Made by a program: the position numbers and the translations under genes
Source of the DNA: an uncultured Gammaproteobacteria bacterium
GTDB taxonomy: Bacteria > Pseudomonadota > Gammaproteobacteria > JAURND01
Assembly: GCA_963714975.1 (NCBI GenBank)
Contig: CAVQQD010000002.1
Span: 1,152,001-1,216,000, forward strand
Direction: 5' to 3'
Length of the DNA: 64,000 nucleotides
The notes under the pieces: model-generated
What the model was told of the DNA's origin: nothing
The model's input: the letters and a program-made list of their open reading frames with translations, nothing else
Database searches by the model: none
Shown here: piece after piece, positions 12,810 to 55,000 of the stretch
Position numbering within the stretch: the stretch's first letter is position 1
Layout of the letters: each line of letters starts with the position of its first letter

Positions 12810-14517
12810 ATGTCCCTTATCAAGTCACCATTCTCGCCTGCTCAATTAAATCAATTAGAGCATATGGTTATGTCTCAAGGGGGACATGCTCTCAGTGAAG
12901 ACGCTGCGATCTTACTCTCCGATCGACATTGGTTCTATATTTATGAATTGGCGCAGGCCTTAAACAATACAGGTAATTGGATTAATTACTATACGAGACA
13001 GCCATTTAATACCTATGATGTAACTAGAATCAAAGAACTCATTAAAAATAAAAAAATCGGTATGAATGCACCTAACGAGCAGAAATTACCTACTTCCACA
13101 GAAGATGATCCTTTCCTAACTGCTGCGCTAAATATTGCCCAAGCAGAAGGCTACGAAATACCTTTTGCCAATAATTTTTTAGTAGATGAGCATATTAGGA
13201 ATCTAGTTTCATCAGGCAGATTAACCCAGGAACAAAGTTTGCCGACCGTTAGACAAATAGTACGGGCAATTGAGATGAATGAACGGTTGAGCGCCTGTTT
13301 TAGCCGAAACCTATTGAGTCTTACCCAGCTTCATGAGTGGGGGTCAATGGAGGCTACTCGTATAGCTAATATCGCTTACTCTGACTATACATGGGTCTTC
13401 GTTTGTGATGGTGCCCTTAGTCTCCGAACAAATTCGTGCATGGGGGGAAGCAGAAACTCTGAGGGTAGTTAATATTGCTAAACAATCCCATATTAGTAAA
13501 TATTTTGAACCCCCTCGTCCAGACCTACTTGATCCCTTACGCTTTGAACAAGAAATGACTCTTGCCGAAATTAAAATGTGGAATCCTCGTCAAATAGAGG
13601 TGGCGACTCGGGATTACAGGAATATTGATTTAAGTAATGAGGATTTAAGGGGCCTTGATCTTCGTGTGGCAAAAAATTTATCTCGAGCCTCTTCCTTGAG
13701 AGGAGTTAATTTATCCCACGCTAATTTGTCGGGCGTTAAGTTAGATAATCAAGATCTTCAAGGTGCGAATCTTTCCCATACTAACTTAAGCTTGGCTTGC
13801 CTCAATGGAGCCAATTTGCAAGGCGCAAATCTCTCCGGTGCCAACCTAAGTGGAGCTACATTTCGAGGAGCTTATTGTCAACAAGCCAACTTTTCGGCAG
13901 CTAATTTTAGCAGGCAGCGAATTCGAATATTTAATCAGCCAGGGAACAGGCTTTTAACAAGCTATCATGATCGAAGTGTAGACTTGACTGCTACAGATTT
14001 ACGCAATACAGTTGGAATGCCAAGACTAAGCACTCTGGGGGTTTACTCACCAGGTGCGCGCATAGACCATGATTTTTTTTGGCGCCCCCACTCGGATTGT
14101 CAAATAGCTACACATCAATTGACAGCAAAAGCTCATCATTTACGCGCACGAGGATATCTAAGAGAAGCTACAGCTGCAGAGCGGTTAACTTATTCCGATT
14201 CACACCCCAGAGAGGAACATCAGCTTGTAGAGTCGAGGAAGTTATTGTCGAAATTACGCGACAATAAAAAAACAGCTGGGCATCTGCTATTTGGCTTGAT
14301 TATTCTTTCTATGGTTACAGAAGGTAGTTTACAATTTACTCACTCGGGTAATATTTTTGAGCTAGAACCTCAAGCCGAGATATATTTAGCAATTGCTTTG
14401 TGTAGTACAGCTGTTTTAGCCCTCATGATCAAAAAAGCAGTGACTGGTAATGTATTCTGCTTTACTTCAGAAGCAGGAGAAATTGCTGATACGCTGTATG
14501 CATTAAAAGGCAGTTGA
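12810..14517 (+). CDS. Pentapeptide-repeat protein with C-terminal TM segments (frameshift near 13420)
   Basis: ANLSG/ANLQG pentapeptide repeats; two overlapping ORFs (12726-13472, 13405-14517) that look like one gene. Confidence 0.75.
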
Positions 14518-14835
14518 CATCCTCGCCCTGAAGAGCGAGGATTTCTACTGCTTTTAACCATCACCCCAAACCTGCACGATTCCTGCACGCTACTTCTATT
14601 TAAGGATCAATTTCCAAACTGTGTTTCTAGCCTTTCCTTGTTGCTCCAATAAACCTAAAGATTTTAAAACCGTAAAATCAGCTTTTATAGTCCTAAGACT
14701 TAATTTTTCCCCTAAACGATTATAAATTTCTTGAGCATTTAAAGCTTCTCCATAAGCAAGAATCTCCATTATTTTTTGCTGCCTATCGGTTAAAGTAATA
14801 TTTTCTTGCTTCTCAATTGATATTATTGGAGGCTT
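14235..14835. repeat. 601-bp direct repeat, copy 1 (copy 2 at 29172-29772)
   Basis: Near-identical sequence at constant offset 14937, with scattered substitutions. Confidence 0.95.
14596..14835 (-). pseudogene. C-terminal winged-helix fragment of a RecG-C/ATP-binding-type protein
   Basis: Manual translation: ...LTDRQQKIMEIL...LSLRTIKADFTVLKSLGLLEQQGKARNTVWK*. Confidence 0.55.
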
Positions 14836-29171: not shown

Positions 29172-29772
29172 GAGGAAGTTATTGTCGAAATTACGCGACA
29201 ATAAAAAAACAGCTGGGCATCTGCTATTTGGCTTGATTATTTTTTCTATGGTTACAGAAGGTAGTTTACAATTTACTCACTCGGGTAATATTTTTGGGCT
29301 AGAACCTCAAGCCGAGATATATTTAGCAATTGCTTTGTGTAGTACAGCTGTTTTAGCCCTCATGATCAAAAAAGCAGTGACTGGCAATGTATTCTGCTTT
29401 ACTTCAGAAGCAGGAGAAATTGCTGATACGCTGTATGCATTAAAAGGCAGTTGACATCCTCGCCCTGAAGGGCGAGGATTTCTACTGCTTTTAACCATCA
29501 CCCCAAACCTGCACGATTCCTGCACGATACTTCTATTTAATGATCAATTTCCAAACGGTGTTTCGAGCTTTTCCTTGTTGCTCCAATAAACCAAAAGATT
29601 GTAAAACCGTTAAATCAGCTTTAATAGTCCTAAGGCTTAATTTTTCCCCTAAACGATTATAAATTTCTTGAGCATTTAAAGCTTCTCCATAAGCAAGAAT
29701 CTCCAATATTTTTTGCTGTCTATCGGTTAAAGTAATATTTTCTTGCTTCTCAATTGATATTATTGGAGGCTT
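29172..29772. repeat. 601-bp direct repeat, copy 2
   Basis: Matches 14235-14835. Confidence 0.95.
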
Positions 29773-48335: not shown

Positions 48336-49055
48336 ATGGAAGAAGAAAAAACCCCCTTACCCCAGAGATTTTTTGGTGAGCATACTCGCCTCGAAAATCA
48401 TAATAATAGTCCTTCAGATGGCACTGGTTTTCAATCAAGCTCTAAGTGTAAATCAAAAATAGGTTTATTCGTCAGTTTTTTAGCATTATCCGCAAGTTTG
48501 GAGATATTGTTAACATCTTCTCTTGGTAAAAACGCATTTCCTGGTGGCGATAGTGTAGTTGTAGTTAATGAGTTCTTGACTAATACTTTAAATAGCAGTT
48601 ATAAGCATTTTACCAATGGAACCGTTATCGGGATGATAGGATTCCTGCTATCGTTGGTAGTTCTGGCATATTTTTTGAGGAGAATATATCCAAAAAATAC
48701 GGAAAAAGTGGACCCTATACAAGCCTGCCGTCCTAAAAATGCTTTTAGTCTATCAAGGCCAGCTTTAAAAACTGTACAAGAACTTTATCGTTGCGAAGGT
48801 ATTAATCCCGATTATTGGACATATGCAGGCGTTCCAGAGGATAGTGGTGGTAGATTATATTTAGGCATACCATTTGAGCAATATAAAAATATTTCATGGG
48901 AAGAAGCATTAGAAAAAGAACTTCAAATTCACGCTCCTCAATATAAGGGCTTTCACGATTATATGATCGTTCCAGTAAAATACTGCAAAAACTTATCGCT
49001 ATTTAATGCAAATAATTCCAATGGAGCAGATCATGATAATGAGCGAAGAATCTAA
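48336..49055 (+). CDS. Two-TM partner protein, module copy 1
   Basis: Paralogous to 50025-50741 and 55886-56611 (CK..IGL..SFL.LSAS.E.LL.SSL, Y.HF, Y.GIP...Y, VP..KC.NL). Confidence 0.8.
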   Translation: MEEEKTPLPQRFFGEHTRLENHNNSPSDGTGFQSSSKCKSKIGLFVSFLALSASLEILLTSSLGKNAFPGGDSVVVVNEFLTNTLNSSYKHFTNGTVIGMIGFLLSLVVLAYFLRRIYPKNTEKVDPIQACRPKNAFSLSRPALKTVQELYRCEGINPDYWTYAGVPEDSGGRLYLGIPFEQYKNISWEEALEKELQIHAPQYKGFHDYMIVPVKYCKNLSLFNANNSNGADHDNERRI

Positions 49056-49661
49056 AGATACTCTTCCCACTCTGGTTGCGCGATCTACAGATAGTTTTAT
49101 ATTAAAACCAGATCTGGATCGGCCTGGTAAGACACTTACAACTACGGATGGATCTTCTCCCAGCAATCAATATTTCGAGGAATCAACTGGACAGTTGTGG
49201 GTTGGTAAGTGCAGTAAACAATCTATCTCAAAACCTTATGAGAGAGAACGCGTAATTGATAAATACTATTACGAATATAGAGAATGGCTAGGCTCAGCTT
49301 TATATCATGTTTTAGGGATAGAAACTCCTTTCCTTGTATTAAGTTTACAAATGCCAAAAAAGGAAGATGACTTAGTTGCAGATATTTTGGAATTCAACCA
49401 GCCCTGCATGCATGTTATGTCACAGTTTTTCCCTGGATTTAGCCCATATGGAGAAACTTTCGTAACAAAATATTTGAAAACTGTAGGACAACAAAAAGAA
49501 ATTATGATTATGATTGTTTTGGCAGAAGTGGAGGTAATATGGGTTATGTGATTGTAAGTGATGAGTTTGGGAAAAGGTATGCAAAATCTGTCAAAATTGA
49601 TCCAGCTTTTGCTTTTACTTTTTTAGACAATCATCAAGATAAGGATTACCAACATGATCCA
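49039..49661 (+). pseudogene. Kinase-like effector, module copy 1 (internal deletion, truncated)
   Basis: LWVGKC, EYREWLG, HVMS; in a second frame YDYDCFGRSGGNMGYV...VKIDPAF. Confidence 0.75.
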
Positions 49662-50024
49662 CTTGATTCTTTTAAAGATTTTTTTAATAATGCCATGATA
49701 ACTTAAATTGGATCATTAATGATCGTAGGAGCTTTAACTTGGATTTGTGTTGCTAAAAATACCCCACATATTCCTGAGGCAATGCTGCAAAATGCTCCTG
49801 CCTAAACAATAGGTTGTAGAACATTGTTATAAATTAATATATTGTATTTGGATAGAAGGGAGCTTTGTATAGCTTAAGATTAATTGCAAAAATTTTCCTA
49901 CTGTTTTTTATAAAAAATTGAGAATTCGTTTTTTTCCTTGCCAAGCAATTGGTGAGGCTTCTAACTTCTTTAAAGCGAAGTTGACATACAGTGTCCTGAA
50001 GAGTAATTTTTAGCGAGGTGTTTT
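49662..50024. repeat. Repeated upstream block of the module (copy at about 55521-55885): 3' gene remnant plus TTGACA-N17-TAATTT promoter
   Basis: Direct alignment of the two segments; promoter at 49981-50009 and 55842-55870, degenerate copy at 48270-48299. Confidence 0.8.
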
Positions 50025-50741
50025 ATGGAAGAAGAAAAAACCCCCTTACGCCAGGGATTCTTTGGTGAACATACTCGCCTCGAAAATCATAATAATCCTT
50101 CAAAAGGTGCTAGCTTTCAATCAAGCTCTAAATGTAAATCAAAAATAGGTTTATTCCTCAGCTTTTTAGCATTATCCGCAAGTTTGGAGATATTGTTGAC
50201 ATCTTCCCTTGATAAAAACGCACTTCCTGGCGGCGATAGTGTAGTTGTAGTCAATGAGTTCTTGACTAATACTTTAAATAGCAATTATAAGCATTTTACC
50301 TATGGAACTGTGGTGGGAGTTGCGGGATTTGCACTGTCGTTGATAGCGCTGGTTTGTTTCCTAAAAATATTAAGCAAAAAATTAGATAAACAAGCCTATC
50401 GTCCTCACGGCATTCGTTTTTTTGAATCCGGTATAGATGTAGTCAAAGCACAAGGAGGCTTTAAAACACACGAGTACTTTGAACTGTGTGGTATAAATCC
50501 CAAAACACAGACATTGGCGATAATAGTGCAAACAAATTCCGATAAAATGTATGTGGGTATACCCCATGATCAATATGAAAAAAATAATTGGTGTGGCTAT
50601 ATCTTACAAGAAGAAATCGACAAATTAATAAACAAGGGACTTTTACCTGAAAAATGTTACTACGACCATTTTATTATTGTCCCTGTTGAAAAATGCTTCA
50701 ATTTAAACAAAGATCCTTCATCCACTCCTATAGTTTCATAA
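50025..50741 (+). CDS. Two-TM partner protein, module copy 2
   Basis: N-terminal half nearly identical to copy 1; C-terminal half divergent. Confidence 0.8.
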   Translation: MEEEKTPLRQGFFGEHTRLENHNNPSKGASFQSSSKCKSKIGLFLSFLALSASLEILLTSSLDKNALPGGDSVVVVNEFLTNTLNSNYKHFTYGTVVGVAGFALSLIALVCFLKILSKKLDKQAYRPHGIRFFESGIDVVKAQGGFKTHEYFELCGINPKTQTLAIIVQTNSDKMYVGIPHDQYEKNNWCGYILQEEIDKLINKGLLPEKCYYDHFIIVPVEKCFNLNKDPSSTPIVS

Positions 50742-50811
50742 TGTTTTTTAAGGTGGAGCAATCAATGAGTCAACAACAAGTTATACCCCCTGTCCTTCCT
50801 TGTATCTTAAT

Positions 50812-51005
50812 TCCAATCACTCAATGTGGTTAAATATCCAAGGGCACTTGGATAGGGGTAAATATGCCGGTGACTTCCTAAGGCATTAAGCCTGTAGAGG
50901 AGATTTTAGCAATTTACTCCGTACTTTATTCATACAGACCGGACGGTATCTTAGGACTTGAGGTAAATATCAATGATCCTGTATTCACAAGGTTGGTCCG
51001 AATAA
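50812..51005 (+). ncRNA. IS110 bridge RNA (ends approximate)
   Basis: 5' hairpin. Target loop has guides GACTTCCT (50872-79) and GTAGAGGAG (50894-902). Donor loop has ACGGTATCT (50943-51) and ACAAG (50987-91). Confidence 0.85.
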
Positions 51006-51042
51006 AGCTATCCAAGCTATTCGCAACATGTAGGATACTACT

Positions 51043-52008
51043 ATGAAGAAAGCATTTCTAGGCATTGATATCAGTAAAAATACATTTGATGTAGCTGTGC
51101 TAATGGAAGATAAGATAAAAACTCAAAAATTTAACAATAACGAGCAAGGCTTTAATAAATTACTTGTATGGATAAACCAGAAGGAAATCGTGTTGTCTCA
51201 AGCTTGTATGGAAGCAACCAGTATTTACGGGCAGGCATTAGCCGAATTTCTTTATGCTCAAGAAATCCCTATAAGCGTTGTTAATCCTGCGAGAATTAAA
51301 GGATTTTCTCAAAGTGAATTAGCCCGCTCTAAAAATGATATTCTTGATGCAAAATTAATTGCAAGATTTTGTAAGTTGATAGGCCCAGAATTATGGCAAC
51401 CAACTCCTGAACCGATTAAAATATTACAGCAATGGGTTAGGAGATTGGATGATTTAATCGCTATGCACAGGCAAGAAGCAAACCGATTAGAAGTCTCTGA
51501 TGATTGTTTAAAGGAGCACATACAAGAGAACATTAGCCACTTAGAAAACAATATTAAGGAAGTTAAAAATGTCATTAAAAATCACATAAATAGCGATCCT
51601 GACATGAAGAAAAAAAGCAAGCTATTGCAATCTATTCCTGGTATTGGAGAAGCAACTACAGCGCAGATATTGGCTTTTATTGGGAATGTGAGTAAATTCA
51701 ATAATGCGAAAGAATTGGCGGCATTCGTTGGTCTTAATCCCAAGCAACGACAATCAGGAACCTCTATCAATGGTAGAGCTAGACTCTCTAAAACAGGTGA
51801 TTCGGCTCTAAGAAAAGCATTTTATATGCCCGCTGTTGTCGCCATGAGACATAACCCAATACTCAGAAATTTTTCTATGCGACTAGAAAAAACCGGCAAA
51901 CACAAAATGGTTATTATTGGCGCAGTAATGAGAAAGCTTGTTCATATGATTTACGGGATACTAAAATCTGAAACCGTGTTTGATCAAAATATATTAAAAT
52001 TAGCTTGA
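51043..52008 (+). CDS. IS110 DEDD recombinase/transposase
   Basis: GIDISK, MEAT, VVNP, KND..DA, SIPGIG, GL.P...QSG.S. Confidence 0.95.
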   Translation: MKKAFLGIDISKNTFDVAVLMEDKIKTQKFNNNEQGFNKLLVWINQKEIVLSQACMEATSIYGQALAEFLYAQEIPISVVNPARIKGFSQSELARSKNDILDAKLIARFCKLIGPELWQPTPEPIKILQQWVRRLDDLIAMHRQEANRLEVSDDCLKEHIQENISHLENNIKEVKNVIKNHINSDPDMKKKSKLLQSIPGIGEATTAQILAFIGNVSKFNNAKELAAFVGLNPKQRQSGTSINGRARLSKTGDSALRKAFYMPAVVAMRHNPILRNFSMRLEKTGKHKMVIIGAVMRKLVHMIYGILKSETVFDQNILKLA

Positions 52009-55000
52009 CAGATGAGACGGTATCTCCTCTACGCCCAACAAAGGATTTTAAGCTTCTACCTGAGCGAAAACGGCCCAACTCTAGTTCGTCTTCAATTCAA
52101 TTTTTTGAAGAGTTAACCACAGGCTTATTATGGATTGGAAAGTGTAGCGAAAGTGCTATAAATCCAAATATTGGCTCGTCTTTTGCACGTTACTATGAAG
52201 AATATAGAGAATGGTTAGGTCTTACGTTTTATCAATTATTAAATATTCCAACATCATTACATATTGCCTTAAGCGACCAACCGTTAAATGAGCAAAATGT
52301 TAATTGCCTTCACCTAATGTCAGAATATATCCTCAACTTTCAAGAATTAGGGGAAGATTTTATAGAAGATTATTGTATCGCAGCCAAGAGCCAGCCATCG
52401 TACCATGTTTCTTTGTCAGATAATGTTGCTGCTTTGCGTGGATTTGGTGCTGCAATGGCAGCTGCTTGTTTCTTATATGATTTAGATTGTATTGGAAGAC
52501 GAGGATGTAACATAGGGTATGTCCCCGTGAAGGAAGAAGATGGGCAGTACTATGCCAAACTGGTGAAGATCGATGCAGGGTATGCATTTAGCTTTTTGGA
52601 AAGTCATAAAAATAAGATTTATGATCACAATCCTCAAACCCGTGATTTTTTTTATTCAAATCATCGTGCTCATATAACTTGTGATTTTATTATACTGCCA
52701 TCTGTTTCTATAAATGAAGTTGAGGTTTGGAAATTACCCGGTAAATCGATAACAGCCTATGTTAGCACAGGAAGCAAACTTTTTTTCTTTGACAAAATTA
52801 ATGAATTATGTACTGAAATTCCCATTTCCGACGATCAACTAAAAGATTTAATGCTAAATTTAGTTAAAATAGAGCCACATAAAGTTCCTTTAGAAATAAA
52901 AGAAAGTTCTGGTACCCTGATTAAAGAATTATCCCTTTATCAAGCAAAATTTATTACCTCGGTCACTGGTCATTTTATAAAAAAACAATATAATATACTC
53001 CGATACGATGAATTAACTGAATCCGATAAAGAAGAATTTGCACAAACAGCGCGTCACATCTTACAAATTCCTGCATCCACTTTTAAAGCATTAATTGACC
53101 AAGCGGTCGTGCCTGATGGCTTTACGCGTGCGCAAGGGGATCGACTCTATAATGATTTGTTAATTCGCAGGTCAAAATTTATTGCGGCTTATCCTGAAAT
53201 CGGCGTAACGTTACAGCAGGAAATATACGAAGCACGCCAAACACTTAAAATGCTTTTATCCACGTTAGTTTCGCCTTCTTCTCCCTCCAAATCACCAATA
53301 CAAAATTCGGAACCTTTAATGATGACAAACAACGAAAAGTGGAAACCTCAGATTCATCAATTCGTGTTGTAGAGAATTTCAGCAGTGACTTATCATTTTT
53401 AACTTTAACTTCATCCAGCATTGCTTCTTTTTCGCCTAATATGAGCAGTCCATTCATCCGCTTGTCAAATCCTAGCTTAAGTCCAAACAGTACTCGGTTT
53501 CCCCTGAATGATCCATTGACCAATACCACCTCTGGGCTATTATCTCTGGTGGATTCTCCTACCGTGTTTAGAATTATGGCAGATCAAAAATTGAGTCAGC
53601 ACGCAATTGATGGCAATAATAATTGCTTATTTAATGCCTTTGCTTTGGGATTAATGGGTTTAATCGCGCAGGGGTCACTTTCTAGCAAGGAAATATTTAC
53701 GAAGCTTGCCACCGAAAAAATCAAAGAGGAAAAAGCCAAGCTGAGTAAAGAACAATGGGGTGAGTGCTTGGGAAAAATGCAGGATTATTTGCAAACCAAA
53801 AACCCTCAAGCTTCTTTAGCAGTGCAACATAGCCTGGCGCCTTGGCTCAGACAAATAGCTGTGGCCAAATTAGCGGATGAGGATTTGGGGATTCGTGACT
53901 CCTTTACGGATGAATTATGTGCCCATATTTTAGATGGTACGCCCTCTGACTTGTTGCGGGATAAGTCCGATTTTGTACAAAGTTTTGAGTCTATTAAACA
54001 GGCATTACTGCTAAAAAAACCTCAGGAGGCGAAGTCACTCACTGCCATAAAAAAGTTTGAAACCGAAGTTCGAGAAAGAATCCGTACCTGGTTTGACGAG
54101 GGTATTGGTTTTAAGTTATATCGAGATCATATGGCCAAGGAAGAGGTCTGGAGTGGGGGTCCTGAGGCGAGGGTCTTAGCTGAGTTCTTGGGGATAACCC
54201 TGATTCTCGCCCATGGCCACAATCCGATGCGATTGGATATCGGTCATGAATGTGATTTTGGACAAATTTCTACCGATAATTTTACCGAGGCAGAATACCG
54301 TCAACTGAGAAGTAAAGAACTCATTCTCGGAAAAGCCTGGGATCCCTCCCACCCCGTGTTGAAGTTAGCTTATGTAAGTGAAAGTTATTTAAATCAAAAG
54401 CTAGCAGAATTGCCTGCAGAGTTAAGTAAAAAATTTTCCGATGCCAGAAAAATGCATTATCGGCCCCCAGCTCAGTCAATGCTCATCCATAATCCTTACA
54501 GTATTCATTGGATTACCAGGAGTACCTGGGAAGGAAGTTTTAATGTTTTAGACAACTTTAATACACCGGATTCCAAAACTACTCTCAGCCGCTTTTCTTC
54601 AATCGAAACTACTCAAGGCACACCACTCGCCAATTATTCAGGGAGCGAATCTACCTCACCTGCACTCGATGAACGTAAACTAAACACCCCTATGGATCCT
54701 GCTTCTCCTGGCTTTGTTGAGATGGAGGAGGATGAGCCTACCAAAATCGAATGTAACCAAAATCTTATGGATGGATTCCAGTCGACTACCGACCCTTTAG
54801 AAACCAGCCCTTTTACTAGCAATCTCCCAAGCCATGAAAATCTGAGTTTTACTGCTTCCTCTTCTCGTTCTTCCATCGAAAGTCTAGTACCACAAGTTTT
54901 ACTACTACGCTTTGGGATCTAAAAGAATCCGCTCGCTCCTCGGGTAGTCAAACCCTGAGCCCACTTCACCCAGACCAGAAAAAGCCAGCATTCCTGATAG

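Follow-up and report, generated by a model that had tools for sequence, protein, structure and literature searches.

When an insertion sequence (IS) carries in its own non-coding end the guides from which its target can be read, the question arises whether the site in which it is found is the site for which those guides are fitted. This question is raised by an IS110-family element that splits a gene in a 64,000-nucleotide stretch from an uncultured Gammaproteobacteria bacterium (GenBank assembly GCA_963714975.1, contig CAVQQD010000002.1, positions 1,152,001 to 1,216,000 of the forward strand), which is here called the window and numbered from its first base. An earlier note on the window had described an IS110 element with a readable bridge RNA whose guides match its insertion site in an effector gene. 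The reading favored here, to which a probability of about 0.85 is given, is that this is a bridge-RNA element of the IS621 type whose usual target is the right end of TnpB elements, and that the copy in the window is an off-consensus insertion.

The Element and Its Recombinase

Positions 50801-52025 (+) of the window form a discrete IS110-family element of 1225 bp, a length that includes the right CT core. The host assembly (G000; 2.56 Mb, 43-45% G+C) holds four full copies that are 99-100% identical and have the same ends as the window element, together with a fifth copy that stops after base 711 (L005; G000 C1:90926-91636) and a sixth that is a 31-nt left-end remnant (L006; G000 C2:270049-270080). 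Every full copy is bounded as ...CT/TGTAT...ACGGTATCT/... (slashes marking the boundaries), so that the CT core stands at either side and no further target sequence is duplicated. In the window, the left flank GTCCTTC-CT occupies 50792-50800, the element begins with TGTAT at 50801 and closes with ACGGTAT plus the CT core, the left donor (52017-52025, +), and the right flank follows from 52026 with CCTCTAC (52026-52032). Both flanks, GTCCTTC-CT and CT-CCTCTAC, are as they had been given in the earlier note. The window copy is unlike all other copies at three positions, and the window-specific base 50918 turns a basal-stem G-C pair into G-U. As to the host itself, its PurK is 69% identical to the closest relative and 59% to the best hit with a name, a Gammaproteobacteria MAG, and nothing points to a named pathogen.

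The recombinase gene (51043-52008, +) encodes a protein of 321 amino acids (aa), and its frame of 321 codons is open in 4/4 full copies. The product matches the Pfam families PF01548 (DEDD_Tnp_IS110; 85.4 bits, E 4.7e-24, cut-off 29) and PF02371 (Transposase_20; 100.1 bits, E 9.5e-29, cut-off 21.3), arranged as an N-terminal DEDD RuvC-like domain and then a C-terminal Tnp domain. Its best match among solved structures is ISCro4 (PDB 9t56; E 1.7e-73, residues 4-315), and IS621 (PDB 8wt6) is matched over residues 5-315 with E 9.2e-72. Residues D9, E57, D99, D102 and S238-G239 align with D11, E60, D102, D105 and S241-G242 of IS621, of which the five D/E/S residues are essential and G242 is conserved according to the available text of Hiraizumi et al. 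(PMC11208158). Besides the recombinase of the window, 13 others with at least 60% identity are listed. Every feature of IS110/IS621-group membership that sequence can test is present in the element, and the stretch 50801-52025 is, in these terms, an intact copy of a previously unnamed IS110-family IS of the IS621 type. Membership in the IS1111 group, in which the guide RNA lies downstream of the gene, was considered and rejected: the recombinase stop ends at 52008, 17 bases before the element end, and the guide loops are upstream of the gene.

The Predicted Bridge RNA and Its Guides

The 242-nt left end of the element folds with -58.9 kcal/mol (z -3.61), better than all 200 shuffles, into two small 5' hairpins (50815-50853, +), which precede the guide loops, and then two long stem-loops that both contain a large internal loop. 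A comparable layout is given for 103 IS110 left ends in the available text of Durrant et al. (PMC11208160). Because Rfam has no matching family, an own covariance model, R1, was built from the left ends of 18 relatives, which share 38-54% protein identity and come from cyanobacteria and two enterobacteria, the window being excluded. R1 matches 50854-51007 (+) over its whole length (model 1-152 of 152; 63.6 bits, E 1.5e-15), and its next-best matches in the 64 kb have E 0.31 and 1.9. This match marks the predicted bridge RNA core, made up of the target-binding and the donor-binding stem-loops. In the alignment of 19 left ends, 8/17 predicted pairs are kept through double (compensatory) changes, and such changes among relatives are also found in the inner stem-loop of the target-binding loop, AGGC/GCCT (50881-50893, +), which is part of the fold. 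The description of the locus as an IS110 element with a bridge RNA is thereby borne out both by the recombinase, through its match to IS621, and by the covariance model.

In IS110 elements, left guides have the sense of the top strand, right guides are its complement, and all of them include the core, as set out in the available text of Durrant et al. (PMC11208160). The left target guide, TGACTTCCT (50871-50879, +), accordingly reads in the sense of the left flank and core, and its last six bases equal the left flank in the window. The right target guide, GTAGAGGAG (50894-50902, +), is identical in all copies and is the 9/9 reverse complement of CT+CCTCTAC. In the donor-binding loop, the left guide ACGGTATCT (50943-50951, +) equals the last nine bases of the element (9/9), and the right guide ATTCACAAG (50983-50991, +) pairs discontinuously through AT..ACAAG with CT-TGTAT (7/7); a discontinuous right-donor pairing of nine on seven bases is also among the features given for IS621 in the available text of PMC11208160. 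All four guide segments and the AGGC/GCCT stem thus stand at the places and on the strands that had been claimed for them. The sequence ACGGTATCT occurs twice in the window, both times inside the element (0.15 expected; at least two in 0/100 shuffles), and CTCCTCTAC also occurs twice, once in the guide and once in the flank (0.23 expected; at least two in 2/100 shuffles). Two further short segments stand where IS621 has its handshake guides, and a corresponding role is suggested for them by what is accessible of PMC11208158. These are the AT after the right target guide (50903-50904, +), which can pair with donor bases 6-7 (AT), and the GT after the right donor guide (50992-50993, +), whose G can pair with target base 7 (C).

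The relatives of the element follow the same rules. Among the five relatives with correctly placed ends, the left guide equals the left flank at 9/9 bases in L024, L028, L032 and L036 and at 8/9 in L027. This count leaves aside L025 (1/9) and L033 (2/9), which were mis-placed by the script; the L025 junction, GCCGTGTCCCT/TGTATG, gives 9/9 for the left guide by eye, and the left end of L033 lies outside the searched stretch. L035 is cut by the contig end. The right guide tracks the right flank in 8/8 relatives (CTAC, CTAG or CTAA, compared with CTCC in the window). Right flanks beginning CT-AC, CT-AG or CT-AA in the relatives differ from the target of the window element, TGAC[A/T]TC-CT-CCTC, and the earlier proposal that the element has a different target specificity is upheld by this difference. 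Relatives of the Microcoleus group (L007-L023 and others) enter the RNA alignment and the right ends only and are kept out of the flank counts. In this group the bridge-RNA loops are well conserved, with the left guide CCCGCCCCT, and target-like hairpins (AACCCGCCCCTAC) are seen in the right flanks; no left end fitting the guide was found within 300 nt upstream (…AAATCTAAAGAAAC).

TnpB Right Ends as the Probable Usual Target

Of the six insertions in the host genome, five lie within the right end of a 1240-bp TnpB (IS1341-like) element, and these five all have the left flank TTGAC[A/T]TCCT. The right flank of the three other full copies, CCTCGCC(C)TAAAGGGCGAGGATTCC..., is the terminus of this 1240-bp repeat, which is present about ten times in the genome and encodes, on the opposite strand, a TnpB of 405 aa (OrfB_IS605, E 2.1e-28; Cas12f1-like TNB, E 3.5e-23; HTH_OrfB_IS605, E 6.9e-16). 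The insertion point is 10 bases inside the TnpB right end, beside the subterminal hairpin CCTCGCCC/GGGCGAGG. The two incomplete copies, L005 and L006, are still preceded by the last 10 bases of a TnpB right end, but no TnpB element adjoins them.

At the occupied TnpB right ends, the left guide matches 8-9/9 bases and the right guide 7/9, six of them contiguous. Base 50875 of the left target guide varies between copies, being T in the window and A in L003 and L004, and it agrees with the corresponding flank base in three of the four readable copies (L003 A/A, L004 A/A, L005 T/T). Six ends of the same TnpB family (family 1) are empty: right-target base 5 is C in place of T in three, a fourth end is degenerate, a fifth has no CT core, and the sixth has its right half as in occupied ends and a G in its left half. 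A relative from an unrelated metagenome contig, L060, which is 81% identical to the window element in DNA and 76% in the recombinase, is also inserted in the right end of a TnpB gene, one that is 49% identical to that of the host genome (E 3e-127). Its right guide GTCGGGGAG matches the flank CTCCCCGCC at 8/9 bases, seven of them contiguous, with a G:C pair where the host genome has A:T. The seventh base of the right guide is A in the window, which mismatches the TnpB end and fits the gene site, and C in L060, which fits the TnpB end. In the basal stem of the target loop, two pairs are exchanged in a compensatory manner between L060 and the window element, one from G-C to A-U and the other from A-U to G-C. 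The agreement between base 50875 and the flanks, the mismatches at empty ends and the relative L060 make the fit of the guides at TnpB ends more than coincidence. As read from these insertions, elements of this lineage usually target IS1341-like TnpB elements at the right end, within its last few bases and its hairpin arm, in the form TGAC[A/T]TC-CT-CCTC.

A second TnpB family, with a protein 43% identical to the first, is present in the host genome (G000) at C1:107994, C1:96068, C2:507718, C2:660857, C3:71439 and C3:193130. Its right end likewise starts with TTGACATCCT and contains another hairpin (CTCCGGCAT/ATGCCGGAG), the right guide matches only three of its bases, and 6/6 of its ends are empty in this genome.

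The region of the TnpB right end that is hit by the IS may itself have a function in RNA guidance. This region, consisting of the 3' end of tnpB and the right end (L058:89-245, -), folds with z -3.26 and gives a sub-threshold Rfam match to the full HgcC model (29.6 bits, E 7.1e-5; gathering 50), which extends 13 bases beyond the end of the TnpB element, and another to sot0042 (19.1 bits; gathering 88). HgcC and sot0042 are RNA families that extend over the 3' ends of tnpB genes of the IS1341 type, and the stretch looks like a TnpB guide-RNA gene.

Some further observations concern these ends. A 617-aa Sel1-repeat protein (L058:1377-3230, -) adjoins a TnpB element. The TnpB right end near G000 C1:120425 reads TTGACTTCCT-TGTCC-TAAAGGG and the others CCCCGCCC; TGT corresponds to the first bases of the IS, and it may be speculated that this is the scar of a lost copy. 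In the window, a 601-bp segment is duplicated at 97% identity (14235-14835 and 29172-29772) and contains TGACATCCTCGCCCTGAAG[A/G]GCGAGGATTTC, a hairpin that resembles the TnpB right end and is three bases shorter. Both copies of the segment are unoccupied, and the right guide matches only three bases.

The Insertion Site in the Window

At the site occupied in the window, the right guide matches 9/9 bases and the left guide 6/9, namely the six core-proximal ones. Together, the two target guides predict a target of 16 nt. Each of the 288,916 CT sites of the genome, with the insertions left in place, was scored against it, and the window site, with its two flanks joined, reaches 13/16. Because no site scores higher and only 10 of the 288,916 reach 13, the window site was almost certainly chosen through the guides, but it is not their consensus target. 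The earlier statement that the guides match the gene site is supported in part: it falls short for the left guide, and the guides are mainly fitted to TnpB right ends.

Two other explanations of the window copy have been weighed. In the first, the gene site would be the cognate target, with the TnpB right ends as secondary sites. The better fit of the right guide (9/9, compared with 7/9 at the TnpB right end) and the fact that the gene site ties for the best target score of the genome speak for this explanation, which is nevertheless improbable, as only 1/6 insertions is at the gene site, the left guide fits it at 6/9 compared with 8-9/9 at TnpB ends, and L060 is likewise found in a TnpB right end, with a right guide that fits seven contiguous bases. 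Moreover, a contig from the sequencing run X3 carries a right end that is 95-99% like that of the window IS and is joined to the right end of the second TnpB family. In the second, the copy reached the gene without its guides, by illegitimate or homology-driven recombination, and the match is coincidental. This would accommodate the three left-guide mismatches but is very hard to believe in view of the rarity of a 13/16 score among the CT sites and of the exact junctions, where the CT core flanks the element at either end and nothing else is duplicated or deleted. From the guide and flank sequences, the best account of the window copy is that of an off-consensus insertion helped by the long match of its right guide.

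Transposition and Mobility

Homology, RNA architecture, guide-flank matches and the distribution of targets are what the sequences show; transcription of the bridge RNA, its binding by the recombinase and recombination are inferred and would proceed as follows. By analogy with IS621, the element would leave as a circle, in which the joined ends would form a σ70 promoter that drives a bridge RNA of roughly 190 nt from the left end. The donor loop of this RNA (ACGGTATCT plus AT..ACAAG) would hold the joined ends of the element itself and the target loop (TGACTTCCT plus GTAGAGGAG) the target TGAC[A/T]TC-CT-CCTC, upon which the DEDD/Ser recombinase would exchange strands at the CT core.

The joining of the right end to the left end does produce TTGACA, a 17-nt spacer and TATCTT, the motif that the earlier note had predicted for circularization. 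The -35-like half, TTGACA, lies at 52005-52010 (+), and TTGAC is found at the same place in the right ends of relatives, at a similar distance before the terminus ACAGTATCT in 13/13 examined. This common terminus bears on an IS621 donor string that the earlier note had quoted: the string has 0 occurrences in the main text of PMC11208160, and what stands is that 13/13 relatives end in ACAGTATCT. The -10-like half, TATCTT, lies at 50803-50808 (+) and joins the -35-like half only across the circle junction; its function is suggested by that of IS621, as far as the available text of PMC11208160 describes it. A promoter scan of the linear sequence gave no excess of promoter-like sites (5 vs 5.0 expected) and none at the element ends.

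It may be asked whether the elements are immobile relics, in which case the guide-flank matches record past activity only. One copy is truncated, another is a 31-nt remnant, an adjacent TnpB element is internally deleted, and the contigs of the sequencing runs provide no evidence of a circle or an empty site, all of which would be expected of relics. Such a state is nonetheless unlikely, as the four full copies have kept 99-100% identity, open frames and the full set of catalytic residues, the guide polymorphism fits the flanks, and near-identical fragments of the element occur in contigs of four sequencing runs from three studies, including a 257-nt contig from a soil-metagenome run that is identical to the left end of the window element.

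Several points weigh against the overall reading of an IS621-type element with TnpB right ends as its usual target and an off-consensus copy in the window. The three outermost bases of the left guide mismatch the window site, and IS621 is described, in the available text of PMC11208160, as tolerating target mismatches poorly. In L002, the remaining readable copy, guide base 50875 is T and the flank base is A. The counts are small, with six insertions and six empty family-1 ends, and the two Rfam matches that form the basis for a TnpB guide-RNA gene are both below gathering. Rfam gives 0 matches over 50600-52200 at E up to 10, and the model built in its place is the sole covariance model behind the bridge RNA; since the Rfam library is without a matching family, the null result is in itself no argument against the RNA. 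No public sequencing run holds the locus (best share of sampled words 0.09), no RNA run is listed for it, and the short contigs from four runs that cover parts of the element contain no joint, circle junction or empty site.

The Interrupted Gene and Its Neighborhood

The gene that is split by the element begins at 50765 with ATG plus 11 codons (50765-50800, +), the last two bases of this 5' piece being the left CT core, and continues in an open 3' piece of 448 codons (52026-53372, +). Across the element, the two pieces share a single reading frame, and the insertion follows codon 12. The earlier proposal that precise excision would restore this frame is not supported in that form. For IS621, excision is less efficient than insertion, as stated in the available text of PMC13626964, and it mostly copies out one strand, so that the donor site stays occupied, as stated in that of 10.64898/2026.08.31.748434.

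The designation of the gene as an effector gene, taken to mean one for a secreted virulence protein, is unproven. No Pfam family is found in its product or in those of its neighbors, and a word-indexed protein search with the 3' piece gave no match. A full HMMER search yields 125 relatives of the first ~210 residues, many of them very long. Among the seven best relatives, which were scanned for domains, five have NACHT or NB-ARC above the cut-off together with TPR repeats, one has a weak match and one has DUF294. The N-terminal domain of the gene product recurs at the N-termini of NACHT/NB-ARC-TPR proteins and is of the kind that is fused to such NTPases elsewhere. The language-model neighbors include LepB_N and PI3_PI4-kinase clusters (0.91), a weak kinase-like lead only.

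A NACHT-DUF7779-TPR protein of 1978 aa is encoded 3.4 kb downstream of the interrupted gene, at 56776-62712. The gene is also part of a tandem duplication (48336-49706 and 50025-53372) whose units consist of a gene for a ~239-aa protein with a hydrophobic stretch and, after it, a gene for a protein of ~460 aa. The latter gene is fragmented into open reading frames (ORFs) of 181 and 55 aa in the first unit and is the one split by the IS in the second. The end of the interrupted gene is overlapped by a 527-aa ORF (53339-54922), in which no Pfam family is found and which contains DGNNNCLFNA, a sequence that resembles the catalytic-cysteine motif of OTU-type proteases.

Implications

For annotation, the message of the locus is ordinary, in that an IS splits a gene of uncharacterized function. 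The element itself adds a natural bridge-RNA system whose four guides, handshake bases and junction promoter are all legible in the sequence itself. Pairing by its right guide seems to extend over 6-9 bases, and work on IS621 links longer pairing to better specificity. The targets constitute a small natural series, consisting of occupied and empty TnpB ends that are single bases apart, a guide polymorphism, the compensating changes in L060 and one off-consensus gene hit, and this series amounts to a ready-made specificity experiment.

A broader proposal is possible, although somewhat doubtful at present: this IS110 lineage may be a specialized parasite of TnpB (IS1341-like) elements, in which guide bases (50875 A/T here; two right-guide bases in comparison with L060) are being re-tuned to variants of the TnpB end and hits in genes are collateral. 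If so, each insertion would separate the scaffold of the TnpB guide RNA from the flanking guide, and the locus would represent reprogramming that takes place in nature as two RNA-guided mobile elements compete. Were the targeting of TnpB ends general, it would link the two main families of RNA-guided transposons.

Comparison With Known Systems

The closest frame of reference is IS621 of E. coli, with which the element shares the domain order and all catalytic residues of the recombinase, the CT core, and a non-coding left end in which a 5' hairpin region precedes the target and donor guide stem-loops. Also shared are the position of the -35 box in the right end and of the -10 box in the left, the bases AU and G where the handshake guides stand, and a repeated hairpin element as natural target. 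The two differ in their recombinases, which match only distantly (E 9.2e-72; identity to enterobacterial relatives is 44%), and in the target itself, which for the window element is TGAC[A/T]TC-CT-CCTC in the TnpB right end and for IS621 lies in a REP sequence. In addition, the right guide of the window element appears to pair over 6-9 bases, whereas that of IS621 pairs over four. Because a blastn search of the element against 5,426 E. coli genomes gave no DNA match, the enterobacterial relatives L035 and L036 stood in for IS621 DNA. Within the group of relatives the donor is ACAGTAT-CT-TGTAT, a single base apart from the ACGGTAT-CT-TGTAT of the window element. ISCro4 (PDB 9t56), compared by protein alone, is likewise matched by the recombinase.

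Other members of the family provide parallels for the choice of target. As far as the available text on ISPpu10 of Pseudomonas putida goes (10.64898/2026.03.19.712850), the insertions of this IS110 element are all in one repeat with a GC-rich stem-loop beside the paired bases; the usual target of the window IS similarly abuts CCTCGCCC/GGGCGAGG, whereas the gene site in the window is without such a hairpin. The IS110-family elements IS4321/IS5075 and the attC-targeting IS1111 group, as cited in the available part of PMC11208160, also specialize in other mobile elements, at whose ends or sites they insert. They differ in belonging to the IS1111 group and in targeting Tn21 inverted repeats or attC instead of TnpB elements. 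A literature search of titles and abstract openings found no IS110 element that targets TnpB/IS1341 right ends, although the supplementary target tables of Durrant et al. may hold such cases. Repeated hairpins and other mobile elements are in any case familiar destinations for the IS110 family.

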